A stretch of DNA of 64,000 nt from Abditibacteriota bacterium (GCA_017445025.1 JAFSVJ010000028.1:95752-159751); one strand, 5' to 3'; numbered from the stretch's first letter, positions 2,318 through 56,920 are shown. Notes: generated from the sequence alone by a model not told the origin. Made by a program: numbers and translations.

Positions 2318-3352
2318 TCACTTCTTATACTCGCTTGGAATTAGTTTGGGCTTTATTATTTTGTTATATTCTATTAAAGGTTTGTTTTCAATTAAAGCAT
2401 TTAATAATTCTATAGCTTCTCTTCCCACTTTGTATAAATCAAATTCCAGTCTTGAAATTTTATATTCTTCATTATAGTTTTGGTGAGCATGAGATTGGGT
2501 GATTATAGGTGTGTCTTTAAAAATATTGGGATAATCTCTAAAATATTCTGATGTAATATCAAACAAGTTATTATCCGTAAAAACTATCAAATCCGGTTTG
2601 GTTTTTATTGTATCAAGAATTTCTATAATTTCTCCTTCACCTTTATCTTTTTTTGAAATATAATTAATTCTGTAAAGACTATACTTTTCAAATATAATTG
2701 CTTCAAGGTGAAAAGGATAACAATCAAAGATTCTGTCAACATCTTCATCAAGTGGGTTTATGGTAAAAACCAGAACATTTTGAGCATTCATCTTATTTAT
2801 TTGATTTATTATTTCTTTATATAAATAAATATAATCTAATGAAACAGTTGGGTAAGGAAGATTATTAAATCTTAAAATATCCACTATAGGAATATCCAAC
2901 GACGCTATATATTGTAGATCCTTTAGCTCTGCACTTAGTGAAATTGCTCCGTCTATTTCGTTTTTAAAAGGACCTACAGAAGTTTCAATATCAAGAATAT
3001 CATTAGCAATAAAATACAAAGGAGTATAACCTTTGTCAATAATATATTTATTTAAAATCTTACAAAAAAACCTGTATAGTTTTTTTGTATCTCCTTTTGT
3101 TGAATAGGTTGTGGATACAATAAGAATATACTTTTTCTTTTCATTATTTTTTGCAACAAATGTTCCGCTACCTCTTATTCTTTTGATAATTCCTTCTTGT
3201 TCTAAATCTGTAAAGGCACTTCTTATGGTATTCCTGTTAACATTAAGTGTTTCTGCAAGAAGAACTTCACTAATCAGTTTGTCTCCGTATTTTAAGTTAT
3301 TTTCTTTTATATGATTATTAATATAATCTATTATTTGTTGTTTTTTTGTCAT
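2318..3352 (-). CDS. GntR-family transcriptional regulator with a C-terminal periplasmic-binding-protein-like (sugar-binding) domain; paralog 1.
   Basis: N-terminal winged helix-turn-helix motif 'YGDKLISEVLLAETLNVNRNTIRSAFTDLEQEGIIKRIRGSGTFVA'. Start placed at the internal 'MTKKQQ' preceded by GGAAGG. About 60% identical to the product of 8269..9309. Confidence 0.75.
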   Translation of the reverse strand: MTKKQQIIDYINNHIKENNLKYGDKLISEVLLAETLNVNRNTIRSAFTDLEQEGIIKRIRGSGTFVAKNNEKKKYILIVSTTYSTKGDTKKLYRFFCKILNKYIIDKGYTPLYFIANDILDIETSVGPFKNEIDGAISLSAELKDLQYIASLDIPIVDILRFNNLPYPTVSLDYIYLYKEIINQINKMNAQNVLVFTINPLDEDVDRIFDCYPFHLEAIIFEKYSLYRINYISKKDKGEGEIIEILDTIKTKPDLIVFTDNNLFDITSEYFRDYPNIFKDTPIITQSHAHQNYNEEYKISRLEFDLYKVGREAIELLNALIENKPLIEYNKIIKPKLIPSEYKK

Positions 3353-3476
3353 TTTTATTATCCTTCCCAATTTATTATATAACAAATCAACAAAGAAAGT
3401 CAACTTTAAAAATAATTAGTCTATACAACTTTTTTGTAAAAGATAGATTTTTTAGATTTTTTCTATAAAAATTCTA

Positions 3477-3506
3477 TTGACTTTATTTGTTTGATTATGG
3501 TATAAT
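3477..3506 (+). promoter_or_regulatory. Sigma70-type promoter for pilin-like gene 1: -35 TTGACT at 3477-3482, an 18-nt spacer, and an extended -10 TGGTATAAT at 3498-3506.
   Basis: Consensus hexamers with the TGn extension. The same 'TGGTATAATATAA' occurs upstream of the paralog at 9455. Confidence 0.6.
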
Positions 3507-3529
3507 ATAAATGTAAAAGCATAGTCCGG

Positions 3530-3558
3530 TAAATAATTAGTGTATACTTTTTTATTTA
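3530..3558. promoter_or_regulatory. Candidate operator: palindrome TAAATAA-N15-TTATTTA with a central GTATAC, lying between the -10 and the ribosome-binding site of pilin-like gene 1.
   Basis: Dyad symmetry read directly from the sequence. Analogous dyads occur at the same position in the two paralogous modules. Confidence 0.45.
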
Positions 3559-3596
3559 TCAGTTTATGTAAAAATATATTTAGGAGGAACATAAAA

Positions 3597-4376
3597 ATGT
3601 TCAAAAGAGGATTTACCCTTATAGAATTGTTGGTGGTTATCGCTATAATCGCCATTCTTGCTGCAATTCTATTTCCCGTTTTTGCCCAAGCAAGAGAAAA
3701 AGCCCGAGCCGCCAGTTGTCTGTCCAATGTAAAGCAGTTGGGAACAGCCCTTCAGCTTTATATTGATGACTACGACGAAACCCTTCCAGTTGGTTATGAT
3801 CCGGCCAGACCCACAACTAACTTGAGTGCCGATTATAACAACTATCCGGCTAAGTGTTTCCCATATATGTTCGCACAGGGATTGCAAGCTGAGATACATT
3901 ATTGGACTTGGATGGATTCCATATTCCCTTATGTTAAAAACGTAAAGTTATATACTTGTCCCTCATCCGGTAATATTAAAATCAATAATGTTTATACTTG
4001 CGGCTATGGATTTAACTACAAATTCACCGAATATTTACCAACAGGGGCTCCACAAGTAATTGCCTATGGTTCACTAAACAATCCATCTAAAAAAGTGTTC
4101 CTTGCTGATACTCAAGTTTCAACTGCAGGTTGGACAGACTTTATTATATGTCCTTACACTATGAGAATAAGAAAAAACGAAGGTGCAATAGCTTGGGTTG
4201 TAGGAATTCCTTCTATAAGACATAACGATGGAGCAAATTACACTTTCTGTGATGGTCATGCTAAGTTCTATAAAAGAAATGCTGGACCGACAGAGACAGT
4301 TATTGTTAACGGAACAGAAGCCAATAACTCTAATTACTGGGGTAATGGCGTTGATTGGTGGGATCCGGCTGCATAA
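3597..4376 (+). CDS. Secreted protein with a prepilin-type N-terminal cleavage/methylation domain and a C-terminal H-X9-DG motif (PVC-group pseudopilin-like family); paralog 1.
   Basis: '[32 protein letters not shown]' is a class III signal/prepilin N-terminus. '[17 protein letters not shown]' gives H-X9-DG. Strong ribosome-binding site AGGAGG. Confidence 0.8.
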
Positions 4377-4383
4377 TATCCAT

Positions 4384-4441
4384 CCCCCCGTCATTTGCCT
4401 TTGGCAAATGCCACCCCCCAAAGCTTCGCTTTAGGGGGACA
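4384..4441 (+). repeat. C/G-clamped double-hairpin intergenic element (CCCCCCGTCA-hairpin-CCACCCCCCA-hairpin-AGGGGGACA), copy 1.
   Basis: Five copies in the window (4384, 11759, 19885, 46173, 47782), all in the same orientation, with compensatory base changes in the stems. Confidence 0.7.
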
Positions 4442-4449
4442 GGTTCAGT

Positions 4450-4483
4450 GCCTCTTTTTTTAAGAGGCATTTTATTTTTTTTT
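4450..4483 (+). terminator. Rho-independent terminator (GCCTC-N9-GAGGC followed by a T-run) after pilin-like gene 1.
   Basis: Hairpin followed by a T-tract. Confidence 0.6.
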
Positions 4484-4702
4484 CAAGGCGTAAACACAAC
4501 TCCCCTAAAAATCTCTAATTTTTTATTTAATGAAATAACTCTTGTCTTATCTCATTGACGCTCTTTCGTATTAGAACAAAATCTATTCGGACTGCGTCCT
4601 CTATCTTTTGCCCTACTACTCTTTCGCTACACTCGATGACGACAATTCGCTATTTCTTATAAAAAAATTGATCTTTTTGGTGATTTGTGTTTACACCTTG
4701 AG
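4483..4702 (-). mobile_element. MITE-like non-autonomous element (~220 bp) with 17-bp terminal inverted repeats TCAAGG(C/T)GTAAACACAA, flanked by a ~20-bp direct repeat GAGGCATTTTATTT(A)TTTTTT.
   Basis: Homologous to the inserts at 23055..23271 and 44695..44909. Shared ends are 'CACAAATCACCAAAAAGATCAATTTTT' and 'TTAAATAAAAAATTAGAGATTTTTAGGGGAGTTG'. Confidence 0.7.
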
Positions 4703-4731
4703 GCATTTTATTTATTTTTTTAGGTTGTAAT

Positions 4732-7700
4732 ATGAAATTTTTATTAACTTTTATTTTTGTATTTTTCTCAATATGTGTATTTGCCGGTGAAGTTGATATA
4801 GAAATACCAAAAAGTAAAAAACCGGTCAAACAAGGAGTTGTGACGGAATTTTCCGATGCTGTGGTTATAGATCATTTTAACACTCAAAACTATCTTTTTG
4901 AAGGGGAACCTAAAACACAATTATATCTAAAATATGATGATAATAACTTATACGCTCTGTTTATATGTTATGAAAACCAAAAAGGTTATCCAAAGGCTTT
5001 TAACAGAGAAGAAAATCTAATGATTGATGATGCTGTTCAAATAGTTTTAGGTTTATCAGCGGAAGAAAGTGCTCGGGGCAGTTTAAATATGGGGGGATAT
5101 GAAGGAGCATATAGTGAAATAAGTCCTTGCGATTTTTATTATCAATTTACAGTAAACAGTGAAAACTCTAAAACCAGAGATTATTTGGAAATGCATCTTG
5201 ACAGGCCTTTATTTGACAGTAAAATCAAAAAAGAAAATAATCGGTGGCTTGCTTTAATGACAATACCTTTTAAATCTTGGGGAGTAAAAAAACCGGATGG
5301 TTTAAGCTTTTACTTTAATGCTTATAGAAGTCGTCCACCCGAAACATTTGGTTATAAAAACTATTCCTATGGTGGTTATAGACCTATGTCATTTGCCAGA
5401 GCAAAATTTACATCAGAACCTTCATTAAATAATACATTTACCCAAAAAGAAACCAAAAAAGAAAACATAATAGATGATTTTTCTTTGAGATATTATCCCA
5501 CTGCCAAACAGATTTGTTCTCAAGCATTAATGAGTAATACAAATCAAAATTTTTATCTTATTATGGAAAGTGATAAATTTGAAACTATTAAAAATGAAAT
5601 AAAAGCCGGAAAACAAACAAATTTAGCTTTTAATATAGGTGATAACCCTAATTTACCTATAAATGTTAAGGCAAAGATTATATCTTCAGCCGGAACAGTT
5701 TTAAAAGAAGATAGTTTAACAGTAGAAAGCACTCCGGAAATGCCTGAGTATCTAAATTTTGAATTTGGAGAAGGTATTATTCCAAAACCTTGGACAAAAC
5801 CTGTAATTAAAGGTAATACCATAAAACTTCTTAACAAAGATATTGTTATAGGAAAAGGTGGTTTTTTTGCTTCTGTAACAGGTAAAGGCGAACTTCTTGC
5901 CGGAGATATGAACCTAATTATAAATATAAACGGAAAACCTGTCCCATTAGAACTGATTAATCAAGATATTAAAGAATATGGCAGAGGAGTTTTAGTAACC
6001 AGTAAATATAAATGCCATAATGGAACTTTTGATATAAAATTAAAGATAGATTTTGACGGCTTTACGCAAGTAAAAATGAGATCTGCGGATATTGAACCGG
6101 ATATACTCTCCAAACTCAGCTTAAATGTGCCTCTTAAAAGAGAAAATGCCTTATTTGTAAACAGAAGCAATGTTCAAAGAACCGTTAAAATTGATAAATT
6201 CGGTTGGCATGGGGATTGTGATGGATATATGTGGGTCGGATGCCACGAATGTGGCTTGGGATACGAATACGATCAATTTAACTCGACCTTTGCCGAAAAA
6301 AAGAGAAACAATATTGAAATAATAAATGATAAAGATATAAGTTTATTAAAACTAAATTTTATTGATGAAAAAGGTCAAATAAAAGAAAAAGGTCACGTTT
6401 TTGTTTTTTATCTGACACCAACCCCTACAAAAGATTATTCTTTGAATAAACATGGTTTATATCATGGTGTGGAATTGTGGTTTGAAACTTGGAGCGATTG
6501 GCAAGGATATTTTGATTTTGCCAAACTTCCGCAAATAAAGGAAAGAGTGGAAAACGCAGAAAAGAAAGGAAATGATTTTGCTATTTATTTTTCTCAATGT
6601 TTAGCAGAAGATTCACCCGCATCACAATTATATTTCAATGATTTGACAGCTTTCCCTAAAGCAAATATGTATCAAAGGGCTTACGAAAATATTCCGGGAA
6701 AAGGGGTACCTTGTTATTTAAGTTGTGTTAGGGAACTTTTTGGAGATTTAATATTATATGGAATAGATAAAGCTGTCAAAGAAGCTGGCTTATCTTGCAT
6801 TTATATGGACGGTCCTTCTCTTCCTTGGGCTTGTCAAAACCCAAGTCACAATCACTGTGATTCAAATGTCTATGATATTTGGGAAGATGATTATCTCTAT
6901 CCTTATGAAAAAACAAGAGATTTTTTAATTAAAATGAGAAATATCCTATCTCAAAGCGGAAAACCAATTACTATGGTAGCCCATACCGGTGGGGGTATAT
7001 CTCCGGGAACCATGAGTTTATGTGATAATTTCTTTGAAGGAGAACAAGTTTCAAGATATAAACAAGGCTATAATATTCCGCAAAATATTTTTTCTGTAGG
7101 ATATAGCGGTACTCCTTGGGGAATGAGGCATGAGATTATAATATCTCCAAATATTAACAATGATAAAAAGTTAAGAGCATTGTGTTTATTGCACGATTCA
7201 ACCTGTGCACCATATAAAGATTCTTATGACCTTGAAAATAAAATATATAAAGATTTTCAAAATGATAAAGAAACTGAGTTTTATCCCTATTGGCGTAAGC
7301 AGGATAAAATAAATTATGAGGGCAAATCTCTTATGACTTATTATCTAAATAAGGATAAAGCTTTAGTGGTATTCGGAAATTTGACTTTTTATAATGATAC
7401 AATTAAGTGTGATTTATCTAAATTATTAGGAGAAAGAGCGGTCGCTATTGACGGAGATGATGATAGTATTATATACGATGATGTTAAAAATATATCATTT
7501 AATATAGCGCCAAATCACTATAAAATACTAATGGTTTATAAAGATAAAAGTTTAGTAAATCAAACCAAGGAAACAATCAAAAAAAACATTATAAAAGAAA
7601 AACAAGAAGAATATAAATATGAAAATTCTACCACAGGTTGGAAAGCTAATATTGGAGATCCCGGAAATGCAGGCGAGATTTTAGATAATAATATAACCAT

Positions 7701-8121
7701 AAATACTACTCTTCAAAAAGCTGAAGGAATTATTGAATTTGAGAAAAATATAGATAATTTCTTTGGTGAGTTTGAAATAGAAAGAGTGGGACCTATAAGT
7801 ATAAACATTGGTCCTTCAAGAGTTTTAATTGCCAATAAGACAGTTAAGTTAGAAACAGTTGATGATTGGAACAATGGTATTATTATAAGTAATGATTTTG
7901 ATGAAATAACCCATTTAAATGTTAAATTATCAATTAATAACAATGAAATGGATGTAATTATTAATGATAAAGTGGTTTGTTATAATGTTATGCCAAAACT
8001 TGATAAAGATATAAATAAAATATCATTTAGAACATGGGCAGATTCATATATAATATTTAAACCTATATTGGTGACTAATAACGAAACAGACCTAATACCA
8101 CAAGTTCACCCTGTGCTGTAA
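4732..8121 (+). CDS. Large secreted protein (1129 aa) of unknown function, possibly a carbohydrate-active enzyme given its neighbours.
   Basis: Signal peptide 'MKFLLTFIFVFFSICVFA'. Long ORF with no overlapping alternative. No family recognised. Confidence 0.5.
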   Translation: MKFLLTFIFVFFSICVFAGEVDIEIPKSKKPVKQGVVTEFSDAVVIDHFNTQNYLFEGEPKTQLYLKYDDNNLYALFICYENQKGYPKAFNREENLMIDDAVQIVLGLSAEESARGSLNMGGYEGAYSEISPCDFYYQFTVNSENSKTRDYLEMHLDRPLFDSKIKKENNRWLALMTIPFKSWGVKKPDGLSFYFNAYRSRPPETFGYKNYSYGGYRPMSFARAKFTSEPSLNNTFTQKETKKENIIDDFSLRYYPTAKQICSQALMSNTNQNFYLIMESDKFETIKNEIKAGKQTNLAFNIGDNPNLPINVKAKIISSAGTVLKEDSLTVESTPEMPEYLNFEFGEGIIPKPWTKPVIKGNTIKLLNKDIVIGKGGFFASVTGKGELLAGDMNLIININGKPVPLELINQDIKEYGRGVLVTSKYKCHNGTFDIKLKIDFDGFTQVKMRSADIEPDILSKLSLNVPLKRENALFVNRSNVQRTVKIDKFGWHGDCDGYMWVGCHECGLGYEYDQFNSTFAEKKRNNIEIINDKDISLLKLNFIDEKGQIKEKGHVFVFYLTPTPTKDYSLNKHGLYHGVELWFETWSDWQGYFDFAKLPQIKERVENAEKKGNDFAIYFSQCLAEDSPASQLYFNDLTAFPKANMYQRAYENIPGKGVPCYLSCVRELFGDLILYGIDKAVKEAGLSCIYMDGPSLPWACQNPSHNHCDSNVYDIWEDDYLYPYEKTRDFLIKMRNILSQSGKPITMVAHTGGGISPGTMSLCDNFFEGEQVSRYKQGYNIPQNIFSVGYSGTPWGMRHEIIISPNINNDKKLRALCLLHDSTCAPYKDSYDLENKIYKDFQNDKETEFYPYWRKQDKINYEGKSLMTYYLNKDKALVVFGNLTFYNDTIKCDLSKLLGERAVAIDGDDDSIIYDDVKNISFNIAPNHYKILMVYKDKSLVNQTKETIKKNIIKEKQEEYKYENSTTGWKANIGDPGNAGEILDNNITINTTLQKAEGIIEFEKNIDNFFGEFEIERVGPISINIGPSRVLIANKTVKLETVDDWNNGIIISNDFDEITHLNVKLSINNNEMDVIINDKVVCYNVMPKLDKDINKISFRTWADSYIIFKPILVTNNETDLIPQVHPVL

Positions 8122-8156
8122 AATAAAGCATAATTAACAATACACAATGCACAATT

Positions 8157-8195
8157 GTCCCCCACTAAATACTATCTAATACATAGGTGGGGGAC
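8157..8195. terminator. Stem-loop (GTCCCCCAC-N21-GTGGGGGAC) between the convergent genes 4732..8121 and 8269..9309.
   Basis: 9-bp GC-rich inverted repeat. There is no clear T-tract, so it may act bidirectionally or only as a structural element. Confidence 0.35.
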
Positions 8196-8268
8196 TTACT
8201 GTTAACCATAGCTTGCCTTAACAGTAAGATCCGGCAAAAATATTATGCATTCATCATTAAATTAAGCA

Positions 8269-9309
8269 TTATTCATTATTCTTATACTCGCTTGGGATTA
8301 GTTTGTGTTTTATTATTTTGTTATACTCTATTAAAGGTTTATTTTGAATTATACCCTCTAATAACTCCATAGTCGCCCTTCCCATTTCATATAAATCAAA
8401 TTCCAGTCTTGTAATATTATACTTACCTGTATAGCTCCAATTTATATTTGAATGAGTTATAATAGGAGTATCTTTAAATATATGAGGATAATCATCAAAA
8501 TATTCTGATGTTATCTTGAACAAATTATCGTCCAAAAACACTACCATATCAGGCTTTTCTTTTATGTTATCCAATATATTTACTATTTCTTCTTCACCAT
8601 TATCTTCACTTTGACCATAACTTATACGATTGTTATTGTAATCACTAAATATAAAATCTTCCAACTGAAAGGGATAACTGCTGTATACATTGCTAACACT
8701 ATCTTTTCTCAAAGCCAAAGAAAATATCAAAACATTAGTGCAACCGTTTCTTTTGATTATTTTTATTATCTCTTCATGAAAATAACTAAAATCAAAGGTG
8801 ACCAAGGGATAAGGGGTTGGCAAGACACCTAAAACATCTACAATGGGTATATTGTTTGACGCAATATAATCTAAATCTTCCACTCTGCCCGCTAATGAAA
8901 TAACTCCTGCAATCTCATATTTATATGTCTCTATTAAAGTTTTAATATCTATCATTTTATTGGAAATAAAATATATAGGTGTATAATTTCTGTCAATAAT
9001 ATACTTATTTAATATTTTAAAGAAGAATCTAAAGATTTTCTTTATATCTCCTTGAGTTGCGTAATCTGTGGAAACTATAAAAATATACTTTTTTTCCTTA
9101 TTCTTCAGTGCCACAAATGTGCCTCTGCCATGCTCTCTATCTATAATCCCTTCTTTTTCAAGATCAGCATAAGCTATTCTAACGGTTCCCCTACTGATTT
9201 TTAATTCTTCCGCAAGGAGAGTTTCACTTATTATTTTATCTCCGTATTTTAAATTATTGTCTTTAATATAATCTTTTATATACTTAATTATTTCTTCTCT
9301 TTTGGTCAT
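8269..9309 (-). CDS. GntR-family transcriptional regulator with a sugar-binding-like C-terminal domain; paralog 2.
   Basis: 'YGDKIISETLLAEELKISRGTVRIAYADLEKEGIIDREHGRGTFVA'. Ribosome-binding site AGAGGTGA. Confidence 0.75.
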   Translation of the reverse strand: MTKREEIIKYIKDYIKDNNLKYGDKIISETLLAEELKISRGTVRIAYADLEKEGIIDREHGRGTFVALKNKEKKYIFIVSTDYATQGDIKKIFRFFFKILNKYIIDRNYTPIYFISNKMIDIKTLIETYKYEIAGVISLAGRVEDLDYIASNNIPIVDVLGVLPTPYPLVTFDFSYFHEEIIKIIKRNGCTNVLIFSLALRKDSVSNVYSSYPFQLEDFIFSDYNNNRISYGQSEDNGEEEIVNILDNIKEKPDMVVFLDDNLFKITSEYFDDYPHIFKDTPIITHSNINWSYTGKYNITRLEFDLYEMGRATMELLEGIIQNKPLIEYNKIIKHKLIPSEYKNNE

Positions 9310-9434
9310 ATTTCACCTCTGTCAATTATATTATAATATAAAAACACATTAAAAAGCAATTTATTAAAAAATAGGTATAAACAAGTTTTTTCAAAAAAAT
9401 GAGTTTCAATAATATTTTATATATAAGATCTCCT

Positions 9435-9463
9435 TGACATTTATAATTTAAATATGGTATAAT
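9435..9463 (+). promoter_or_regulatory. Sigma70-type promoter for pilin-like gene 2: -35 TTGACA at 9435-9440, a 17-nt spacer, and an extended -10 TGGTATAAT at 9455-9463.
   Basis: Consensus hexamers with the TGn extension. Confidence 0.65.
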
Positions 9464-9486
9464 ATAATTGATAAAGAAAAATCCAA

Positions 9487-9518
9487 ACAATTAATAGGTA
9501 TATACAAGTTAATTGTTT
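9487..9518. promoter_or_regulatory. Candidate operator palindrome AACAATTAA-TAGGTATATACAAG-TTAATTGTT between the -10 and the ribosome-binding site of pilin-like gene 2.
   Basis: 9-bp perfect arms; the centre contains the palindrome GTATATAC. Confidence 0.5.
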
Positions 9519-9546
9519 AGATTAAAAATTTAGGAGGAACATTACC

Positions 9547-10242
9547 ATGTTCAAAAAAGGATTTACCCTTATAGAATTGTTGGTTGTAATAGCAATTATA
9601 GCCATTCTTGCTGCAATTCTATTCCCCGTTTTCGCTCAAGCAAGAGAAAAGGCCAGACAAACCAGTTGTTTGTCAAATTGTAAACAAATAGGAACAGCGC
9701 TTCAACTTTATGTTGATGACTATGATGAAACTGTTCCGTTAATGTGGTACAACAGCAACCCATTTCCAACAGATAATTCATATCCTTGCTGTATGTTTAC
9801 CACAATGGATTTTATCTATGGCGGTCCAGCACTATGGACTACTTGGATGGATGCTATATTTCCTTATGTAAAGAATAGAAATATATTTATTTGTCCTTCC
9901 GGAGGAAAAAATCTTGCAGGTTATGGTTATAATGGTAATTTAGTTGGTGGTTATACTGTATGGACACAGGAAAACGCAAAGCCTATCAATCTCGCTCAAA
10001 TCAATAACTCTTCTCAATTAACATTTATTGGGGATACTCTCCAAGGTGGAACTTATAGTGCTATGCCTTTATCTTCTGCTTTAATTTATGCTTATAAGAA
10101 AAATATTAATAGGCATATTAGTGGTATGAATTGGACATTTTGTGATAGTCATGCTAAATACTATAAAGATTCAGCAGGACCGGCCTCTGCACCTAACGAC
10201 TGGATTTGTGCAGGAAATGTTTGGTGGGACCCTGCTGCTTAA
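9547..10242 (+). CDS. Prepilin-type N-terminal cleavage/methylation plus H-X9-D(S/G) protein; paralog 2.
   Basis: '[38 protein letters not shown]'. The C-terminal '[17 protein letters not shown]' gives H-X9-DS. Confidence 0.8.
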
Positions 10243-10262
10243 TTAAAAAATAAAAAACTATT

Positions 10263-10289
10263 AGGGGGATATATTCCCCTTTTTTTTTG
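10263..10289 (+). terminator. Rho-independent terminator (AGGGGGATATATTCCCCT followed by T9).
   Basis: Perfect hairpin followed by a T-run. Confidence 0.7.
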
Positions 10290-10352
10290 TAATAAAATAA
10301 TAAATATGATATAATATAATTAAGTAAAAAAATATTTTTTAGGGAGATTACA

Positions 10353-11657
10353 ATGAAAATTTTACTGAACATATTCTTATTAGTTCTACTCACGGGAATG
10401 TTATTGGCTCAAAACAACAGTGCATATATATCAGATGTATATTCAAAACAAGTTCCTCACATAGATAAAAACGGGAATATCCTAACAAAATATGACGAAA
10501 AGAAATCCTTTTTCCCTATTGCAATGTGGGGAGTACCTACATCCGAGGAAGTCTATGGCAAAACCTATAATTGGAACATATTAAAAAAAGCGGGCTACAA
10601 TACAGTTTGGCCCTGGCCCTCAGAAAACAGAGTTGCACAGTTAGACAAAGGAGCTGAATATGGCTTTCAAGTTGTCCTTATGAACCCCATAAGCGACGAA
10701 TCCCTTCCCTTAATTAATAATCATCCTAATCTTTTGGGAAACTGTTGGAGAGACGAACCTATAGGTCAATTAGGCCCTAAAATGCAAAGTATTTTTGATG
10801 ATTTTACTCAATATAAAGATAAAGCCAAGAAATTAGCTCCAAAACTAAAAGTTTTTGTTAACGATGCACCTTGGATAACAGAACCCGCCACAGAATGGTG
10901 GATCAAGTGGAACAAGGCGGGAGACATCTCTTGTCACGATTCCTATCCTGTTTACAACAAAGACGGAGAAGCCGCAAGATCTTTGGGAACAGGCATCAAT
11001 ATGCCGGCATCTATGAACTTGGCTGTATCTTCTACCGATGAAAAAATGCCTGTTTGGCTTATAGTGGGAGCCTTTACCCAACCTAATGAATACGGTAACA
11101 GTTATCCTTTCAGACACCCTACCCCCAACCAACTTCGTTCCTGTGTTTATACAGCTATAGAACATGGTGCTACAGGAATAACCTACTTTATATGGGACAG
11201 CTATATTTCAAGAGAAGGTCAGTGTATAGGTATGTCACCGGATCCTCAAACAGATATGGGAAACGGAGATTCCAAATATGTAATAGCCAAGCCCATTGAT
11301 TTAATAAATGCAAAAGCTAATTGGGAAATGGCTACTCAAATCAACAGAGAACTTAAGGAACTTGCTCCTATCATCTTAACTCCCACTGATACAAAAACTC
11401 AGTTTACAGTTAAAATTACAGGAAAAGGGGTAACGGAGCAACCTATTCACTGTATGCTTAAAAAAGACCCGGAAGGTGGCTGGATACTCTTTACAACCAA
11501 TATAGACGCTTCTTTCTTAAAGGTGGAATATACTTTTATGACATCTATCACAGAAGCAAAGGCTTTGTATGAAAACCAAAAGCCTTTAACAGTTGAAAAC
11601 GATACATTTTCTCTGTCATACGAACCCTTTGAAACACATATAATAAAGATAAAATAA
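10353..11657 (+). CDS. Secreted protein; first of a tandem pair of paralogs. Possible TIM-barrel glycoside hydrolase ('GNCWRDEPIG', 'HGATGITYFIWDS').
   Basis: Signal peptide present. Roughly 45% identical to the product of 11902..13254. Possible NEP-like acid/base motif 'DEP'. Confidence 0.45.
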   Translation: MKILLNIFLLVLLTGMLLAQNNSAYISDVYSKQVPHIDKNGNILTKYDEKKSFFPIAMWGVPTSEEVYGKTYNWNILKKAGYNTVWPWPSENRVAQLDKGAEYGFQVVLMNPISDESLPLINNHPNLLGNCWRDEPIGQLGPKMQSIFDDFTQYKDKAKKLAPKLKVFVNDAPWITEPATEWWIKWNKAGDISCHDSYPVYNKDGEAARSLGTGINMPASMNLAVSSTDEKMPVWLIVGAFTQPNEYGNSYPFRHPTPNQLRSCVYTAIEHGATGITYFIWDSYISREGQCIGMSPDPQTDMGNGDSKYVIAKPIDLINAKANWEMATQINRELKELAPIILTPTDTKTQFTVKITGKGVTEQPIHCMLKKDPEGGWILFTTNIDASFLKVEYTFMTSITEAKALYENQKPLTVENDTFSLSYEPFETHIIKIK

Positions 11658-11758
11658 AAACAAAAAGCAAATCTTAAATATGAAATAAAGAATATAAAAC
11701 AAAAAATAAAAAATATGTCTATCAACTATAAGAAAATCTTAGGTTAAAGGAATTTCCA

Positions 11759-11816
11759 CCCCCCCGTCATTTGCCTTTGGCAAATGACACCCCCCAATCT
11801 TACGATTAGGGGGACA
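11759..11816 (+). repeat. C/G-clamped double-hairpin element, copy 2.
   Basis: CCCCCCGTCATTTGCCTTTGGCAAATGACACCCCCCAATCTTACGATTAGGGGGACAG. Confidence 0.7.
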
Positions 11817-11901
11817 GATTTTACATTTTCTATTTTATATTTTCTATTTAAAAATAATTTTGTGATGACAAAGCATAAACAAAGAAATTCAAGGACAGAT
11901 T

Positions 11902-13254
11902 ATGAAAATACTACTTTATTTATTAATATTTTTAATCTCAGTTTCATCTATTTTAGCTGATGAATTTGAAACTTTGAGAAAAAATCAAAGAAATTTCAAC
12001 AGCATTCAGTTAATATATCAAGACGGTGTCCCTCACACAGACAAAACCGGCAACATTCTAATGGAATATGACAAAGAAAAATCTTTTTTTACCATTGCAG
12101 CTTGGGGTGTTCCTCTGCACGGTGAGCAATTGGGAGAGACTTATGACTGGCAACTCCTAAAAGACGCCGGATTTAACACTGTATGGCCCTATCCTATTTA
12201 CCCTATAGATAAACAGATAGAAGCTTTTGAGAAATTTGATATGCAAGGAATTATTTTACACCCTATAAATGATGAAGATTTGCTCAAAACCATAGGAAAC
12301 AGTCACATACTGGGTAATTGCTTTAAAGACGAGCCAATAGGCCTTGTAGGCTCATATTATGAAGATAATACGCCAAAATCAGATAAAATTTTTAAAGACT
12401 ATTTGGACTACAAAGCTCACGCTCAAGAAATCAATCCCAATCTAAAGATCTTTGTAAATGATTGCACCTGGAACACAGAACCAGCCACAAGTTGGTGGGT
12501 TAAGTGGAACACTGCAGGAGACATTCAATGTCAAGACGCCTATCCCATTACTTTGGATGAAGAAGGAGCTACAAGAACCTTAGCTCACAATAATATAGAC
12601 CTACCTAATTCGGTAGCTTGGGCTACAGCTATAAACAAAGAACAAAAACCTGTATGGCTTATTGTAGGTCCCTTCTCTCAAGTAGATAATTACGGTGGTG
12701 GTTCCTGTTTCAGGTGGCCTACTCCAAACCAACTCCGCTCTTGTGTTTATGCGGGAATTGAACACGGTGCAACAGGAATAATCTATTTTATATGGGACAG
12801 TTTCATATCAAGGGAAGGACGAGTTATAGGTATGAGCCCTAATCCTAAGGTTAAAATGGCTGAAGCAGATAAATATGTGGTAGCTAAGCCTCAAGACCTT
12901 GTAAACTCAAAAGCTATGTGGGAAACCACCAAACAGATAAACAAAGAGCTTAAGGAACTTGCTCCCTACATTCTGTCAAAAACTGTCAAAGAAAAAACTT
13001 ATAGTGTAAAGATAGAAGGCAAATTTATAAGCCCCAACGGTTTAAGATGTCTTCTAAAACAGGACGGAGAAGGTGGATATATTTTGTTTGCCACAAATAT
13101 AGACGCAGCTTGGCTACAAGCAGAATTTACTTTTGAAAAAGAGTTTTTATTAGCGGAAACCATGTTTGAAGACGGAAAGATTTTAGGCAAAGCCGACAAA
13201 GTCTTCAAAGCTGATTTTGACCCCTTTGAAACACATATAATACATATAAGATAA
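11902..13254 (+). CDS. Secreted protein; second of the tandem paralog pair. Possible glycoside hydrolase.
   Basis: 'GNCFKDEPIG', 'NQLRSCVYAGIEHGATGIIYFIWDS'; paralog of 10353..11657. Confidence 0.45.
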   Translation: MKILLYLLIFLISVSSILADEFETLRKNQRNFNSIQLIYQDGVPHTDKTGNILMEYDKEKSFFTIAAWGVPLHGEQLGETYDWQLLKDAGFNTVWPYPIYPIDKQIEAFEKFDMQGIILHPINDEDLLKTIGNSHILGNCFKDEPIGLVGSYYEDNTPKSDKIFKDYLDYKAHAQEINPNLKIFVNDCTWNTEPATSWWVKWNTAGDIQCQDAYPITLDEEGATRTLAHNNIDLPNSVAWATAINKEQKPVWLIVGPFSQVDNYGGGSCFRWPTPNQLRSCVYAGIEHGATGIIYFIWDSFISREGRVIGMSPNPKVKMAEADKYVVAKPQDLVNSKAMWETTKQINKELKELAPYILSKTVKEKTYSVKIEGKFISPNGLRCLLKQDGEGGYILFATNIDAAWLQAEFTFEKEFLLAETMFEDGKILGKADKVFKADFDPFETHIIHIR

Positions 13255-13486: not shown

Positions 13487-14689
13487 ATGAAAATAAAAGT
13501 TGTTGATTTTAACGAATTACCGGTTCACGATACCACTTGGGCTTTATGCGGTGGTATTCACGGAGAAGCCTATGTGGGAGCCTGTTGCGAACACATAGGA
13601 GGTGTCAACGCTGTTGTTGTTCGCTACAATTCCGACGGCACAAGAGAGCCTCTTATGGATATGGGAGATATTGCCGGACAGCCCGCCGACAACGGACGTG
13701 CCACACAGTGCAAAGTCCACGACTCTCTCTTTGTAGATTATGACGGACTTCTCTATGCCGCTACTCACTTAAGCGGTCCTCCCGTCAACCAAATCATTTA
13801 CAACCCTTGGGGTAACTGGATGGACAACCATGTGTCCTTCCCGGGTGCTGTTCTCGCTGTTTATGATACAAACACAGACACTCTCATAAGCAGTGATTAT
13901 ATATACCCCCAAGAAGGTTGCAGAGCCTTAGCCCTTGACCCTATAAGAAAGAAATTATACTCCTGCACCTACCCCTTAAACCATTTCCACGTTTGGGATA
14001 TTGAGAAAAAGCAAGACACAGACTACGGAAGAGTGGGAGCTGTAAACCCTATTTGTATATGGGTTGACAGTAAGGGAAACGGATACCACTGTGACGATTT
14101 CGGCAGAGTTATACGCTTTAATGCAGAAACAGAAAGATTGGAATTCACGGAAGCCTTTACAACTTACCCCAAAAAATCTCAAGGTGGTTGGCACAATGTT
14201 TCTTACGATATAGTAAATACAAAAGAAAAAGATGTGGTTGTCGGTGTCAGCTGGAACTCTTATCCACATCTTTGGAAATATGATATGACCTGTGATAAAA
14301 CAGAAGATTTAGGACCTATCCACCTAAACACAACGGGTAAAGAAGCGCCTCGTATTAACAACTCCCATGTGGCAGGTCTGTGCTTCGGCCCCGACGACAA
14401 ACTATATATGTTTGGAATGACAGAAAACAATGACCTTCCCGGACAGGCCTTAACTCACATTCTTCGCTATACTATGGAAACCGGTGAGTGGGAAGACTTA
14501 GGTCCTCTTGTAGACGACAAGGGAGAAAAGGTTTGGTATATCTCCAGAGCTGTTTGGATAAACAGAAGAGAAATTGTGGGAGCTATAGTGGGCAGAGTGC
14601 CTACAGGAGTGGCTCACATAATTTTTGATGACAATGAAATAGATGACAAAGGGGATAAAAACTTCCCACAACTGAGGATTTGGGGATAA
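13487..14689 (+). CDS. Hypothetical protein, possibly a beta-propeller fold. Local GC content is clearly higher than the surroundings.
   Basis: Long ORF. The compositional shift also produces spurious overlapping ORFs in other frames. Confidence 0.5.
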   Translation: MKIKVVDFNELPVHDTTWALCGGIHGEAYVGACCEHIGGVNAVVVRYNSDGTREPLMDMGDIAGQPADNGRATQCKVHDSLFVDYDGLLYAATHLSGPPVNQIIYNPWGNWMDNHVSFPGAVLAVYDTNTDTLISSDYIYPQEGCRALALDPIRKKLYSCTYPLNHFHVWDIEKKQDTDYGRVGAVNPICIWVDSKGNGYHCDDFGRVIRFNAETERLEFTEAFTTYPKKSQGGWHNVSYDIVNTKEKDVVVGVSWNSYPHLWKYDMTCDKTEDLGPIHLNTTGKEAPRINNSHVAGLCFGPDDKLYMFGMTENNDLPGQALTHILRYTMETGEWEDLGPLVDDKGEKVWYISRAVWINRREIVGAIVGRVPTGVAHIIFDDNEIDDKGDKNFPQLRIWG

Positions 14690-15240: not shown

Positions 15241-16380
15241 ATGATAGATCTTAGTCAAAAGAAATTTCCCGATAGGGAAAGAGAAATGAACAAGAAAAAA
15301 ATAGGCAGACCTATTCACAATTCCGCCTTTGATACTTTCGTCAAAGAAGGGTCTCTATATGTCCGTTCCATAAACTGCAACAGGCAAATAAAAGATATAG
15401 ATTTTTATTCTTCCAATATTACAACCTTAGCATATAACAATGGATATATTATAGGTGCCACCTCCGGAGAGAAAAGTGTTATTTTCTTACAAGTTCTCCA
15501 CTCAGCCTATGACTGTGCCGCCCCCATATATGAACTAAAGGAAACCAACAATACAGTAGGAATAGCTACCATATCCCTAACTGATATCATAATAGGTTCC
15601 AATAATGATAAAGGTAATATTATCAAAATCACAGGCGTTCACGGCTACGGTGATGTTATTCAGGAGTGGGACTACCCCTACCCTGAAGAAGAAAAATTAT
15701 TAGAAATTCCGGATAAAATCCTCACCTTTAAACAGAGCAAGAAAGATAAAAATATAGTTTACATTATCACAGACACAGGAAAATTTATTATATATAATAT
15801 TGAAGAAAATTCTTTAAATAAAATAGGTATTCTCTCCGAAAACTTCTTCTCAAAAGTAATTTGTGAAGGAGACGATGGTAATGTATATCTGTTTAAGGAA
15901 TTAGGTGGAATCCTTATCTATAAAGATAATAAAATTGAGGAAACAGGTATAAAAATCCCTTGCTTCCCGGGAAAAGGCCCCTATGCCAAAATCTCTGCTG
16001 CTATATGGAAAGATAACACCCTTATTGTGGGAGATACAGAAGGTTTATTGTCAAAGGTTATATTGCCAAACGAAGAGTGTAAAAATGAAATTATACCTCT
16101 CGGAAAGCCCACATCTGTAGGCGGAATTGATTTTCTTGTTGAAATAACAGACGGAAGAATTTACGGAGTTGCGGGAAGTTTTGATGGAATGGCTCATCTA
16201 TTCTTGTATAATCCCAAAAAGCACTCCATAAAAGATTTGGGTGTTTGTTGTGCCACAGTGGAAAAGGGCTGGTATGGTTATGTTATAGGTGATATGGTTG
16301 TCTGCCCCGACGGACACATTGTTTTAGGTGAAAACGATAAACTTGGTTGCCTATTCCACTATTACCCCCCGATTGTGTAA
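15241..16380 (+). CDS. Hypothetical protein, possibly a beta-propeller, distantly similar to the product of 13487..14689.
   Basis: Long ORF with a shared C-terminal pattern (…G..G.AHL..Y…DLG…). Confidence 0.45.
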   Translation: MIDLSQKKFPDREREMNKKKIGRPIHNSAFDTFVKEGSLYVRSINCNRQIKDIDFYSSNITTLAYNNGYIIGATSGEKSVIFLQVLHSAYDCAAPIYELKETNNTVGIATISLTDIIIGSNNDKGNIIKITGVHGYGDVIQEWDYPYPEEEKLLEIPDKILTFKQSKKDKNIVYIITDTGKFIIYNIEENSLNKIGILSENFFSKVICEGDDGNVYLFKELGGILIYKDNKIEETGIKIPCFPGKGPYAKISAAIWKDNTLIVGDTEGLLSKVILPNEECKNEIIPLGKPTSVGGIDFLVEITDGRIYGVAGSFDGMAHLFLYNPKKHSIKDLGVCCATVEKGWYGYVIGDMVVCPDGHIVLGENDKLGCLFHYYPPIV

Positions 16381-16760
16381 AGCAGAAAATTAAAGCAAAA
16401 AGCAAAAAGTTAAATTTGCGATGGCAAATTTAAAAATATTAAAGCATAAAGCATAAAGCATAAAAAAGTGGAGCTAAGGCTCCACTTTGGTTTTGTGGTG
16501 CTTCGCACCACTTTTGTTAAGTGGCCTCTAAATTTTTTAGTGACGACTACAGAACATAGCTAAATAAAAAACTAAAATAAAAGGCTCCCATTTGGGAGCC
16601 ATTTTTATTTAGCGTAAACCAAATTCATATTTAGTCTGACATCCCCAACAATGCCTTTCATAAATAGTTGGTTCATCCCCCGGTCCTCTTTCTATCGGTA
16701 TAACTTTTATAGATTCCTTTGGTTCTTCATAAAGACAACCATCATGTGGACAATCAGAGA

Positions 16761-17015
16761 TTACATAACAATATGTGGAACATATTTTTCTATTTTACAA
16801 TTTACTGTTCTACTGGCTAACCTTTTATACTGTTCGTAAGCAACAGGATCCTTTAAATAATCACAACCTATAACACATCCACCTACTATCCCAGTAAATG
16901 CAAAAATTCCGAAAATTGCTGCTGCCACAATCCAATCTTTATCTATTCCAATACATGTTAAAATAAGAAAAACTATTCCAAAAACAATCATAATAATAAA
17001 ATCTAACATTATCAT
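16761..17015 (-). CDS. Small membrane protein (84 aa, two transmembrane segments).
   Basis: Strong ribosome-binding site AAGGAGG. A Cys-rich (CPHDGC…CWGC) reading frame with no start codon continues downstream at roughly 16640-16800. Confidence 0.5.
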   Translation of the reverse strand: MIMLDFIIMIVFGIVFLILTCIGIDKDWIVAAAIFGIFAFTGIVGGCVIGCDYLKDPVAYEQYKRLASRTVNCKIEKYVPHIVM

Positions 17016-17230
17016 TTTCCTCCTTACAATTTTAATTCATATTTTTTATTTATTTAACTTGCAATTTGAATTCACAGTTAAAATATATTTCATTTTTATT
17101 TATCACTATTATATTTCTTTATAGATATATAATACTCTGTAAAAAAATAATTCACAAAAAATACTAATCGTCATTTGAATAAAACTCACATTCCTTGACA
17201 ACAATAAAATGACGGAAAAATGTTTATTTA

Positions 17231-17440
17231 TTAATGCCAATGAATTATACAGAGATAATGTCTTCCACACCAATTACAAATAATATCTCTTCTTAATTTA
17301 GGATAATCGTCAGGATAAGATATATATTGTGAACGTAGATGTTTTTTGTGACAGTGAGGGCAAAATGTTGCAAAATGACCTGATTTGTATCTGTAATCTA
17401 AAATTTCGCAATTTTCAACTGCATAAGGTTCCTCAAGCAT
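17231..17440 (-). CDS. Small four-cysteine zinc-ribbon protein (69 aa).
   Basis: CxxC…CPHCH…CNWCGRHY. Ribosome-binding site AGGAGA. Paralog of 17711..17926. Confidence 0.55.
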   Translation of the reverse strand: MLEEPYAVENCEILDYRYKSGHFATFCPHCHKKHLRSQYISYPDDYPKLRRDIICNWCGRHYLCIIHWH

Positions 17441-17534
17441 ATTTTTCTCCTATCTTAGTTTGATAAAAATATCAACTGTCAAGATTTTCTTGACAGTTGA
17501 TACACAGTAAAAGTATTCTATGTATGGATATTAA

Positions 17535-17690
17535 TCAATTCTTCTTACATTAGAGATTTGAACTTCTACTGTTGCATATTCCGCAAATAAAAGTCTTCTT
17601 GCATTAGTTTCACTTGAAGCTGTATAAGTTTTAACTTGTATACCCGGAATACCTTTAACTCTATACCTAATCTCATAAGTATGCATAACA
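17535..17690 (-). CDS. Small protein (51 aa), not present in the ORF track.
   Basis: ATG preceded by GGAAGGTGA. Translation: MHTYEIRYRVKGIPGIQVKTYTASSETNARRLLFAEYATVEVQISNVRRID. Confidence 0.35.
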
Positions 17691-17710
17691 TTCACCTTCC
17701 TATAATTTTA

Positions 17711-17926
17711 TTATCGCCATTCGATATAAGCATGTATATGTTCATGACAATGAGAACAATTTACAGTTGGTCCACCATGTCCTAAATAAGTAAAAGGGTG
17801 TTTTGCTGACATTACACGACCGCATTTAGGGCATACTACAACAAGGTATCCATGTCTACCATCAAAGCTTACAATTTCGCAATTAATGCAAACAGGTTCT
17901 TTATCCATTATTTTTCTCCTTCGCAT
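17711..17926 (-). CDS. Small four-cysteine zinc-ribbon protein (71 aa).
   Basis: CINCEI…CPKCG…CSHCHEH. Ribosome-binding site AAGGAG. Confidence 0.55.
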   Translation of the reverse strand: MRRRKIMDKEPVCINCEIVSFDGRHGYLVVVCPKCGRVMSAKHPFTYLGHGGPTVNCSHCHEHIHAYIEWR

Positions 17927-18091
17927 ATTTCTATGCTTTAAAATTAGTTTTTATTGGTTAGAACAAGTAAAATTTCCTTACATAACCATATATATTATAC
18001 TCAAAAAAAAAAAAAACGCAAGTTTTAAGACATAAATGGTGAAAAAAATAAAAAAATTTCATTTCGGGGCAAATAAAAAGCAAAAATAGAT

Positions 18092-18166
18092 AATCAAAAA
18101 TCAAAGTCGTGGTGCTATGCACCACGTATTTCTGCTTTTTACTTTTATTTTTTGATTTGTGATTTA
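18092..18166. repeat. AATCAAAAATCAAAGTC + GTGGTGCTATGCACCAC hairpin + TTTGATTTGTGATTT element.
   Basis: Member of the family listed at 13296. Confidence 0.5.
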
Positions 18167-18244
18167 TGTAAAATTTATGGTATAATAAATATGGATTTGT
18201 AAATATAATATTGGGTGAATGTTACCTTTACTTCCAATAAAGGA

Positions 18245-19845
18245 TTTTTATAAAGAATCACCCCCCTAACGCAGTGCGACAACTGTTTTTTTTCGGACAA
18301 TTACATAAAGATTTGTTTAGTTAGTGGGTAAGACTTTAAATTTCGCGCCATAAGTGCTTTTTAGATTGTAGATTGTTGAACAAAAAAAGCCTTTTGTTTA
18401 CGGAAATCTAAAACCTTACGTAATCACTTTAGACATCAGTCTTTAATACCGAAATCGTTTAGGTTCTTTATCATTATTATGACTAAAACAGAAATTTATC
18501 TCCGGAATTTCCATTTCTGTTCCTTCATAATACTTTGAATACATTTGGAATGTAGTCATATTAGTGTTTGTATATTTTCGTTCATAATTATAATAATGCA
18601 TCCATTCTTCTATTCCTTTATTGAACACTTCAAGTGTTTCAAACTGGCGTTGATTATAAAACTCATCTCTAAGAACGTGATAAAATTGTTCAATAAAGGG
18701 ATTATCTGTGCTTTTATAGGGACGGCTGTGACTTTGCTTTAAACCTAATTTCTCTAAATAATTATGAAAGCCATAAGTGCGATATATTCCCGCTCTATCT
18801 GAATGAAATATACCATCGGTGATCTTAAAAGGTAAAGCTTTTTCTAATAGTTTTAGGGTTTCATTTGCCAGATCGGAATTTTCATGAAATGAAGTGTGAA
18901 AACATATTATCATACGGGAATAATAATCCATAACACAAGATACTTTTATTATGCCAAAGCTATATTCCAACTTAATAACATCGGTGCAAAAGTATCTTAA
19001 AGGTTCATTTGCTCTAAAACCTGTTTTAATTAATCGTTCACATGCCGGCATCCTATCTTTTGTTAAGGATTTATTCTTGCAGCGACTCTCTTTTTTGGTT
19101 AAAAGCAGTCCTTCTTTTTTGGCAATTTTATAGACCTTTTCTTTATAAGTTTTAATACCATAGTCTTCGTAAAGAATAGAAACTAAAGCTTTGCAACCAC
19201 GATATATCTTTCTACGTTCTCGTATATCATGTAAAGCTAAACGAATCTTTTCGTCAATCGGATCTTGTGGCTTTTCCTCTTTAGGCTTATCGTTATCATA
19301 AAAGGTAGAACTTGGTATTTTAGTATGTTTAAACAACATTGTTTTTGTAAAAAATTCTTGATATAAATTGACTATAAAAACCTTAACATCATTTTTTATC
19401 TTTGTCTTTTTTTTTTCAAGAACATTAAATGCTGTGTTAACACAAAGCTCACAATCTAAATCTTTTATGATTTCAATTAATTCTTTTTGGGATTTATTTT
19501 CTAATTGTTTAAGATCAATGGGTTTTCTAAATTCAGCTTCATTTTTCTTTTTTTCTTTGTTAAAAAAGCTCATTGGACCTTTATCCTTATATTGACTAAC
19601 CCAAGAACGAATTGTTTTTCCGCCAGGCTTAGTTTGATTGGGAAGCAATTTTCTTGCAGTTTGCTTAAATGAAAGAAAATGCTCTCTCATATATATTATA
19701 GCATATATTTTGTATTCTGGCGAATAATAAGCCCTCTTTTGTGGCTTTTTTGAGATTTTGCTATCCATTAATTTTCCTCCTATTTGTCCGAAAATTAACA
19801 GATAGCACACGCAGTAGGGGGGGGACTGATTGTCAATCATAGCCA
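18245..19845 (-). mobile_element. Insertion sequence (~1.6 kb) with ~40-bp imperfect terminal inverted repeats (TTGTCCGAAAA..CAG…GC..TAGGGGGG.TGATT) at 18250-18310 and 19780-19840.
   Basis: The inverted repeats were found by comparing the reverse complement of the left end with the right end. A transposase ORF lies between them. Confidence 0.65.
18443..19768 (-). CDS. DDE transposase with an rve/integrase core (IS3/IS481 superfamily), encoded as a single ORF.
   Basis: 'HSDRAGIY' and 'SRPYKSTDNPFIEQFY' match the rve catalytic-core signatures (HSDRG…, SR.G…DNA..E). N-terminal helix-turn-helix. Start placed at the internal 'MDSKISKK' so that the CDS lies inside the right inverted repeat. Confidence 0.75.
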   Translation of the reverse strand: MDSKISKKPQKRAYYSPEYKIYAIIYMREHFLSFKQTARKLLPNQTKPGGKTIRSWVSQYKDKGPMSFFNKEKKKNEAEFRKPIDLKQLENKSQKELIEIIKDLDCELCVNTAFNVLEKKKTKIKNDVKVFIVNLYQEFFTKTMLFKHTKIPSSTFYDNDKPKEEKPQDPIDEKIRLALHDIRERRKIYRGCKALVSILYEDYGIKTYKEKVYKIAKKEGLLLTKKESRCKNKSLTKDRMPACERLIKTGFRANEPLRYFCTDVIKLEYSFGIIKVSCVMDYYSRMIICFHTSFHENSDLANETLKLLEKALPFKITDGIFHSDRAGIYRTYGFHNYLEKLGLKQSHSRPYKSTDNPFIEQFYHVLRDEFYNQRQFETLEVFNKGIEEWMHYYNYERKYTNTNMTTFQMYSKYYEGTEMEIPEINFCFSHNNDKEPKRFRY

Positions 19846-19884
19846 AGTATAAACTTTGGATGCCCGACAAACTTTAAATTCCAT

Positions 19885-19936: not shown

Positions 19937-19974
19937 AATTGTGCATTGTTAATTGTGATTATAGAATTAAAACT

Positions 19975-44909: not shown

Positions 44910-44912
44910 TTA

Positions 44913-46130: not shown

Positions 46131-46147
46131 ATTATAATCAAATACAG

Positions 46148-46312: not shown

Positions 46313-46328
46313 AAAAACGAGGTGAAAT

Positions 46329-56813: not shown

Positions 56814-56920
56814 ATACACCAAAATCTCTATTACCTATACGTAAAGGGATATATATTACTCACATTAAGGACGCTTTTAATAGATAGATTTCTGTAAAGC
56901 AAAAAACGGGAAATGAAATC

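Follow-up and report, generated by a model that had tools for sequence, protein, structure and literature searches.

A stretch of 64,000 nucleotides from the metagenome-assembled genome of an Abditibacteriota bacterium (GCA_017445025.1 JAFSVJ010000028.1:95752-159751; G+C 31-38%), referred to here as the window, contains three divergent gene pairs in which a regulator gene of the GntR type stands back-to-back with a gene for a pilin-like protein of the DUF1559/H-X9-DG family. Secreted glycosidase-like genes lie beside each pair, and the three regulator/pilin cassettes next to such genes are confirmed as a real observation. An earlier note on this DNA had drawn attention to the three pairs, and their architecture was indeed identical in all three cassettes. 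For three pilin-like genes each to lie beside one of three regulators among about 58 genes, a permutation test gave p of about 2.6e-4, orientation not counted. The evidence was obtained by computation and consists of the domain architectures, the promoter, ribosome-binding site and terminator units of the pilin-like genes, the repeated boxes of cassettes 1 and 2, the conservation and enrichment of the pairing in other genomes, and the glycosidase-like nature of the neighbours.

The gene families themselves are known and annotated. What appears to be new is the pairing with the regulator, the enzyme neighbours and the Abditibacteriota setting: some DUF1559 members would be individually switched by dedicated sugar-type repressors, with promoters built for very high expression, beside secreted glycosidases. 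For a family of very large size the locus is a testable starting point, with defined candidate operators, regulators with ligand pockets and globular domains.

Regulators and pilin-like proteins

Regulator 1 (2318-3352, minus strand, 344 amino acids (aa) from the ATG at 3352), regulator 2 (8269-9309, minus strand, 346 aa) and regulator 3 (57914-58945, plus strand, 343 aa) all carry the GntR winged helix-turn-helix PF00392, with E values of 1e-13 to 1e-15 (9.5e-15 for regulator 1 and 2.7e-13 for regulator 2). A profile of the regulator family matched the DNA-binding domain of AraR (4egy) at the N-terminus with an E value of 1e-10, and its residues 106-333 aligned to the effector domain of CcpA/LacI with an E value of about 2e-6. 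The profile also aligned to 3k4h over residues 72-341, and regulator 2 gave a weak match of its own to CcpA over residues 132-336. Related loci from other genomes and metagenomes (L004, L006-L010 and L091-L095) were used for comparison, and the regulator relative in one of these, L092, carries Peripla_BP_3. By their predicted domains the regulators are thus of the AraR-type build, i.e. a GntR winged-helix N-terminus joined to a sugar-binding C-terminus of the LacI/CcpA type. The expectation that they would match both GntR and Peripla_BP-type models held for the GntR part in all three proteins, and for the effector domain at the level of the family profile with CcpA. Identity is 58% between regulators 1 and 2 and 34%, over the full length, between regulator 3 and either of them; regulator 1 is 73% identical to its orthologue in L009.

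The pilin-like genes 1 (3597-4376, plus strand, 259 aa), 2 (9547-10242, plus strand, 231 aa) and 3 (56921-57664, minus strand, 247 aa) encode proteins with a prepilin N-terminus followed by DUF1559. The boundaries first given for cassette 1 needed correction, in that the likely starts of pilin 1 and regulator 1 are the ATG codons at 3597 and 3352 in place of the longest-open-reading-frame starts. All three pilin-like proteins exceeded the Pfam cut-offs for PF07963 (N_methyl) and PF07596 (DUF1559), the latter with 50.3, 42.5 and 33.2 bits (cut-off 23.3) and with only the first third of the model aligned. The prepilin cleavage and methylation motif (TIGR02532/PF07963) likewise scored over its cut-offs in each, and its residues were G or A at -1 (Ala in pilin 3), F at +1 and E at +5. 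In a six-frame scan of the window, prepilin N-termini (FTLIELL) occurred three times only, all of them in these genes. The H-X9-DG model TIGR04294 was matched by pilins 1 and 3 (27.4 and 20.5 bits, cut-off 19) and gave no match for pilin 2, in which the C-terminal motif has decayed to H-X9-DS. The assignment to the prepilin and H-X9-DG models therefore stands in full for pilins 1 and 3, and for the prepilin and DUF1559 parts of pilin 2.

The three pilin-like proteins of the window are 46-47% identical to each other, and in an alignment of 68 homologues residues 6-37, a 32-residue N-terminal helix, are invariant. Recent gene conversion was considered as a source of the identical N-termini and was ruled out: at identical N-terminal residues only 15-31 of about 49 codons are shared among the window genes. 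Since the synonymous sites differ, the N-terminal identity would have been kept by purifying selection and not by gene conversion. The AlphaFold model of the pilin-like protein (pLDDT 93) predicts a long N-terminal helix packed against a beta-sheet, a fold that would place it among type IV filament subunits in the broad sense, and a Foldseek search with this model found no solved relative at E <= 0.001. Further residues invariant in the 68 homologues are, in the numbering of pilin 2, Cys41, Cys116, His190, Asp200 and His202, and the triad His190/Asp200/His202 spans the H-X9-DG motif. This pattern suggests a candidate disulfide between Cys41 and Cys116 and a candidate metal site at the triad.

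Transcription units and candidate operators

Each pilin-like gene is preceded by the top sigma-70 match of its region. The promoter of pilin 1 (3477-3506, plus strand) consists of TTGACT, a spacer of 18 nt and TG-n-TATAAT, and matches at 11 of 12 positions in addition to the TG. The promoters of pilin 2 (9434-9463, plus strand, 18 nt spacer) and pilin 3 (57746-57774, minus strand, 17 nt spacer) both have TTGACA and TG-n-TATAAT and match at 12 of 12 positions with the TG, that of pilin 2 being the top of a 12-kb scan. The near-identical promoters with a 17-18 nt spacer and a TG-extended -10 element that had been reported were thus recovered in all three cassettes. The strong AGGAGG ribosome-binding site reported along with them was found in cassettes 1 and 2, and cassette 3 has GAGAGG at this place. 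Intrinsic terminators, each a hairpin with a T run, follow pilin 1 (4447-4471, plus strand, stem of 10 pairs), pilin 2 (10263-10280, plus strand) and pilin 3 (56792-56815, minus strand). With a promoter and a terminator of its own in three of three cases, each pilin-like gene is a separate transcription unit, as had been proposed. An Rfam scan of the window at gathering thresholds returned one tRNA-Thr (61104-61179) only; none of the cassettes gave a riboswitch match.

An inverted repeat, CATTTGCC-TTT-GGCAAATG, lies at 4392-4411 just past the stop codon of pilin 1 and ahead of the terminator, with C6 runs flanking it. It is not kept in the orthologous locus L009, in which the terminator hairpin, at the equivalent place, is all that is retained of the spacer between pilin 1 and the following gene, and the idea of a conserved element in this spacer was dropped.

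The promoters of pilins 1 and 2 are bracketed by pairs of boxes that are candidate operators. In cassette 1, copy 1 (AAATAATTAGTCTATAC, 3410-3426, plus strand) lies between the divergent promoters, and copy 2 (AAATAATTAGTGTATAC, 3531-3547, plus strand) lies 121 bp from it in the 5' untranslated region of pilin 1. Together they form a 17-nt repeat with one mismatch, AAATAATTAGT[C/G]TATAC, which was reached in 2 of 200 dinucleotide shuffles. The 12-mer core, GTCTATAC, occurs in the window at copy 1 and at 3536 only. In cassette 2, copy 1 (AATAGGTATAAACAAGTT, 9370-9387, plus strand) is again between the divergent promoters and copy 2 (AATAGGTATATACAAGTT, 9493-9510, plus strand) in the 5' untranslated region, 123 bp away, and the 18-nt repeat, AATAGGTATA[A/T]ACAAGTT, also with one mismatch, was reached in none of 200 shuffles. 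Exact matches of TAGGTATAWACAAGTT in the window are restricted to 9372 and 9495. In both cassettes copy 2 sits between the -10 element and the ribosome-binding site.

The sequences of the boxes are cassette-specific, and the geometry recurs. Paired boxes of another sequence (TAATGTATGCACA) are present in L010, with a repeat length reached in 1 of 200 shuffles; in cassettes 1 and 2 and in L010, copy 1 lies at about 57-63 and copy 2 at about 178-188 of a spacer of ~245 bp, 121-125 bp apart. In L009, the orthologue of cassette 1, the box of that cassette is conserved. Both cores, GTCTATAC and GTATATAC, agree with the published GntR/HutC-type operator consensus NyGTMTAKACNy, which has a GT..AC centre (PMC4494728). 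In cassette 3, the 5' untranslated region of the pilin-like gene contains a perfect 11-bp inverted repeat, ACTTGTATTAA-N7-TTAATACAAGT (57688-57716, minus strand), with exact matches at this place only, which may serve as an operator or else form an RNA hairpin.

Recurrence in other genomes and glycosidase-like neighbours

The pairing is conserved in the close clade. The closer regulator relatives that were looked up (47-61% identical) adjoin a divergent DUF1559 gene in three of three cases, and of the ten close-clade pilin loci whose flanks could be read, eight have a regulator relative of full length within two genes, namely the three cassettes of the window and L004, L006, L092, L093 and L094. 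A pattern scan of genomes for further regulator relatives, made with uninformative peptide patterns, returned helix-turn-helix matches in Fusobacteria and Clostridium only. In L092, two tandem GntR-type regulators precede one pilin-like gene (3576-5939) and a third regulator lies 5 kb downstream (11839-12750); tandem pairs of pilin-like genes were seen in L093 (6001-7827) and L010 (581-2060).

The distant sample comprised 80 DUF1559 loci from metagenomes, of which 46 upstream neighbours were scanned with Pfam. A narrow hidden Markov model of the regulator matched a neighbour at only one of the 80 loci, and the exact regulator family is therefore limited to the close clade. The tie between the pilin-like genes and this particular GntR regulator accordingly holds for the close clade and fails for the distant loci. 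At the latter, other sugar-type regulators replace the AraR-type one: 6 of the 46 upstream neighbours were of the LacI/periplasmic-binding-protein type and 3 of the AraC type. In a background of 102 genes at least three positions off in the same loci, no family of either type reached two, and the enrichment was significant by Fisher's test (p = 0.004 and 0.0005). The enrichment of regulator neighbours around H-X9-DG genes asked for in the earlier note was in this way found both in the close loci (8/10) and in the distant ones (9/46). The downstream neighbours of the distant DUF1559 genes included three beta-helix proteins, a heparinase II/III and a GH26 (glycoside hydrolase family 26) protein, and were otherwise mixed, with many housekeeping genes.

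DUF1559 is the largest paralogous family of Planctopirus limnophila, with 68 copies (PMC10632474), and Rhodopirellula baltica has 74 copies (PMC2754498). The family has been described as apparently restricted to Planctomycetes, its function not known (PMC10632474, PMC2754498). The statement that the H-X9-DG family is known only from genomes of the Planctomycetes-Verrucomicrobia-Lentisphaerae type did not hold. The host is an Abditibacteriota bacterium: in the database comparison one of the pilin-like proteins was 100% identical to an NCBI entry from an Abditibacteriota metagenome-assembled genome, and the closest relatives are named Abditibacteriota or Armatimonadetes; the range of the family is therefore wider. 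A literature search on DUF1559, H-X9-DG, PF07596 and pilins in Abditibacteriota or Armatimonadetes found no functional study, and no report was found of AraR-type regulators dedicated to DUF1559 members or of DUF1559 in Abditibacteriota.

The genes that neighbour the pilin-like genes are glycosidase-like in all three cassettes, as had been suggested, and comprise one GH123-like gene, two of the clan GH-A-like type and one DUF4838 gene. Sec-type signal peptides were seen at the start of all four proteins, called by eye from the translations and without a predictor. The nature of the GH123-like protein and of the first clan GH-A-like protein was taken from a fold search and from scanning of relatives, PDB sequence searches with the two having given nothing useful. 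The GH123-like protein of cassette 1 (4732-8121, plus strand, 1129 aa) is a multidomain protein that has no Pfam match above cut-off of its own; among 37 relatives, GH123_N was found in 34, Laminin_G_3 in 11, CBM9_1 in 7 and GHL6 in 7. In cassette 2, a clan GH-A-like hydrolase of 434 aa (10353-11657, plus strand) is followed by a paralogue of 450 aa (11902-13254, plus strand) with 50% identity, and their family consists of "hypothetical proteins" without a Pfam model in Armatimonadetes, Hydrogenedentes and Pirellulaceae. The neighbour in cassette 3 is a DUF4838 protein of 762 aa with a GH20b-like N-terminal domain (54447-56735, minus strand; PF16126, E 6e-87). The conserved clan GH-A-like family without a Pfam model and the GH123-like family are two candidate enzyme families obtained as a by-product of this work.

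TG-extended -10 elements of their own precede the hydrolase genes that follow pilins 2 and 3, the promoter of the 434-aa hydrolase being at 10287-10315, and the promoter scan found no convincing promoter upstream of the GH123-like gene. Similar enzymes recur behind pilin-like genes elsewhere: a DUF4838 gene in L093 and L095, a clan GH-A-like hydrolase in L092 and a GH123-like gene in L009.

Other genes of the window were noted in passing. A classical LacI-family regulator (LacI helix-turn-helix and Peripla_BP_3, 51424-52446) is some 2 kb away from the DUF4838 gene of cassette 3 and does not adjoin a pilin-like gene. Downstream of the hydrolase paralogues, the proteins encoded at 13487-14689 (400 aa) and 15241-16380 (379 aa) have no signal peptide and gave faint Kelch-like matches only. 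They are followed by a 2-kb stretch with small open reading frames only, among them Cys-rich zinc-ribbon-like ones of 69 and 71 aa at 17231-17440 and 17711-17926, and by an adjoining insertion-sequence transposase with an rve integrase core (18443-19870, minus strand; whole region 16400-19870). A GH38 alpha-mannosidase of 1027 aa (19939-23022) without a signal peptide has the transposase on one side and housekeeping genes on the other, unattached to any regulator/pilin pair. The riboflavin biosynthesis cluster (42926-46787) has internal gaps of 300 bp and 200 bp and no FMN riboswitch at Rfam gathering thresholds.

Proposed role and comparison with known systems

We give about an even chance to a reading in which the pilin-like proteins are sugar-derepressed subunits that support glycan use, each cassette being a small sugar-responsive switch. 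An AraR-type repressor would bind the two cassette-specific boxes, about 120 bp apart around a very strong pilin promoter, possibly with looping of the DNA between them, and would hold the pilin-like gene, and probably its own gene as well, off until a specific sugar or oligosaccharide binds. The pilin-like protein would then be made in quantity and processed by prepilin peptidase, and its invariant N-terminal helix would insert it into a shared assembly of the type IV filament or pseudopilus type. The exposed, variable and aromatic-rich globular domain would aid the use of the glycan attacked by the neighbouring glycosidases, most likely by binding or capture. This model, in which a sugar-derepressed switch governs a pilin-like subunit made at high level, is the best supported one, and our confidence in its regulatory part is fairly high; for the protein itself, a function in capture or adhesion has no more than moderate likelihood.

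Several observations weigh against this reading. The paired boxes are significant in only three of nine spacers, and those of cassette 3, L004, L008, L093 and L094 are individually non-significant. Single regulator sequences reach no Pfam periplasmic-binding-protein model at the C-terminus, and no such regulator was seen near two of the close pilin loci, L007 and L091. Genes for an ATPase, platform protein, secretin or prepilin peptidase are lacking in the 64-kb window. The globular domains contain 15% aromatic residues and 3.9% Trp, a richness that provides only weak evidence for carbohydrate binding. The cassette boxes were not found upstream of any hydrolase gene, with relaxed matches at chance level. 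We had considered one regulator driving both pilin and enzymes through a common box, and this was given up. As the boxes bracket pilin promoters only, the direct target would be the pilin-like gene and not the enzymes, and neither co-regulation of the two nor a joint regulon of pilin and carbohydrate-active enzymes is supported by them; the connection with glycans is drawn from the proximity of the genes and the kind of regulator. Across genomes, the pilins and regulators cluster by genome and not by enzyme partner, which argues against a tight specificity between pilin and enzyme, and partner-specific co-evolution was rejected.

This last point also bears on the possibility that a type II secretion-like machine uses the pilin-like proteins as inducible pseudopilins, which on a sugar signal would drive or adapt the outer-membrane export of the neighbouring Sec-exported glycosidases. 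The N-terminal 53 residues match GspG best among whole families, the adjacent hydrolases all have Sec-type signal peptides like type II substrates, and PF00437 (T2SSE) ATPase genes made up 2 of the 102 background genes near distant DUF1559 loci. The GspG model TIGR01710, however, gave 34-40 bits against a threshold of 88.85 and covered residues 4-56 only, i.e. the N-terminal helix, and in size the globular domain far exceeds that of GspG. Known type II systems have one major pseudopilin and not many that are separately regulated, and pilins that do not co-vary with the adjoining enzyme family are a poor fit to cargo-specific adaptors. We regard such a machine as an unlikely explanation.

Two other explanations appear quite improbable to us. 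The pilin-like proteins could be membrane-anchored sugar-binding proteins with pilin-type signals that feed transporters, similar to the sugar-binding proteins of Sulfolobus, which have class III signal peptides and depend on the bindosome assembly system, and would then not be filament subunits. Sugar-binding proteins with signal peptides of the pilin type have been described before (PMC3047682), the Pfam identifier of the family is SBP_bac_10 and one paper terms it solute-binding (PMC2754498), and the regulators are of the sugar-binding type. No ABC or other sugar transporter gene adjoins any of the three cassettes, however, the AlphaFold2 model resembles pilins and not periplasmic binding proteins, and an invariant N-terminal helix of 32 residues exceeds the needs of a membrane anchor. 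Alternatively, the pairing could be real and unrelated to glycans, with a non-sugar ligand, pilins for adhesion, motility, DNA uptake or the envelope, and glycosidases adjacent merely because they are common. The glycosidase promoters without boxes and the many housekeeping genes downstream of distant DUF1559 genes would fit with this, as would two DUF1559 paralogues reported to be essential in P. limnophila (PMC10632474). On the other side, the C-terminus of the regulators matches the LacI/CcpA sugar-effector family, the same enzyme families lie beside pilin-like genes in different genomes, and sugar-type regulators are enriched beside distant family members.

Compared with known systems, the sugar-responsive switch proposed here resembles that of AraR of Bacillus subtilis, in which a GntR winged helix at the N-terminus is joined in the same chimeric way to an effector domain of the LacI/GalR type (PMC1950556). 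AraR represses carbohydrate-use genes, and the operators with a GT..AC core seen here are consistent with such a protein. The likeness is at the level of domains only: there are no arabinose genes, and the probable target is a single pilin-like gene and not catabolic or transport operons. By model score the window proteins are members of the DUF1559/H-X9-DG family (PF07596, TIGR04294), and multiple paralogues occur here as in the genomes described before, but the setting is Abditibacteriota, with a dedicated regulator and enzyme neighbours, and one copy is without the DG of the motif. Unlike GspG/PulG/EpsG and type IVa pilins, the proteins stay below the GspG cut-off and have a larger globular domain without a close solved relative, and in contrast to gsp and pil operons their genes are monocistronic and individually regulated.

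The cassettes are like the polysaccharide utilisation loci of Bacteroidota in that a recurring, paralogous, non-enzymatic surface component and a dedicated sensor or regulator stand beside varied glycosidases. They differ in having no SusC/SusD homologues, the scan of the cassette genes having given no TonB-dependent receptor or SusD match, and in that the enzymes have promoters of their own without the boxes of the regulator. Pilin-type signal peptides on sugar-related proteins and dependence on a pilus-like assembly are traits of the Sulfolobus bindosome (PMC3047682), which is archaeal, has another binding-protein fold and is linked to ABC transporters, none of which applies here, and the bindosome serves as an analogy only. 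A wider proposal, which we consider rather doubtful, is that pairs of DUF1559 genes and sugar-type regulators mark glycan loci in Abditibacteriota/Armatimonadota, Hydrogenedentes and Planctomycetes-Verrucomicrobia, the paralogues being subunits of a single common type IV filament that bind glycans, are induced by sugars and can replace each other. If this were true, bacteria would have in these proteins a counterpart of the archaeal bindosome or of SusD-like capture proteins, and the large size of the DUF1559 family would be accounted for.

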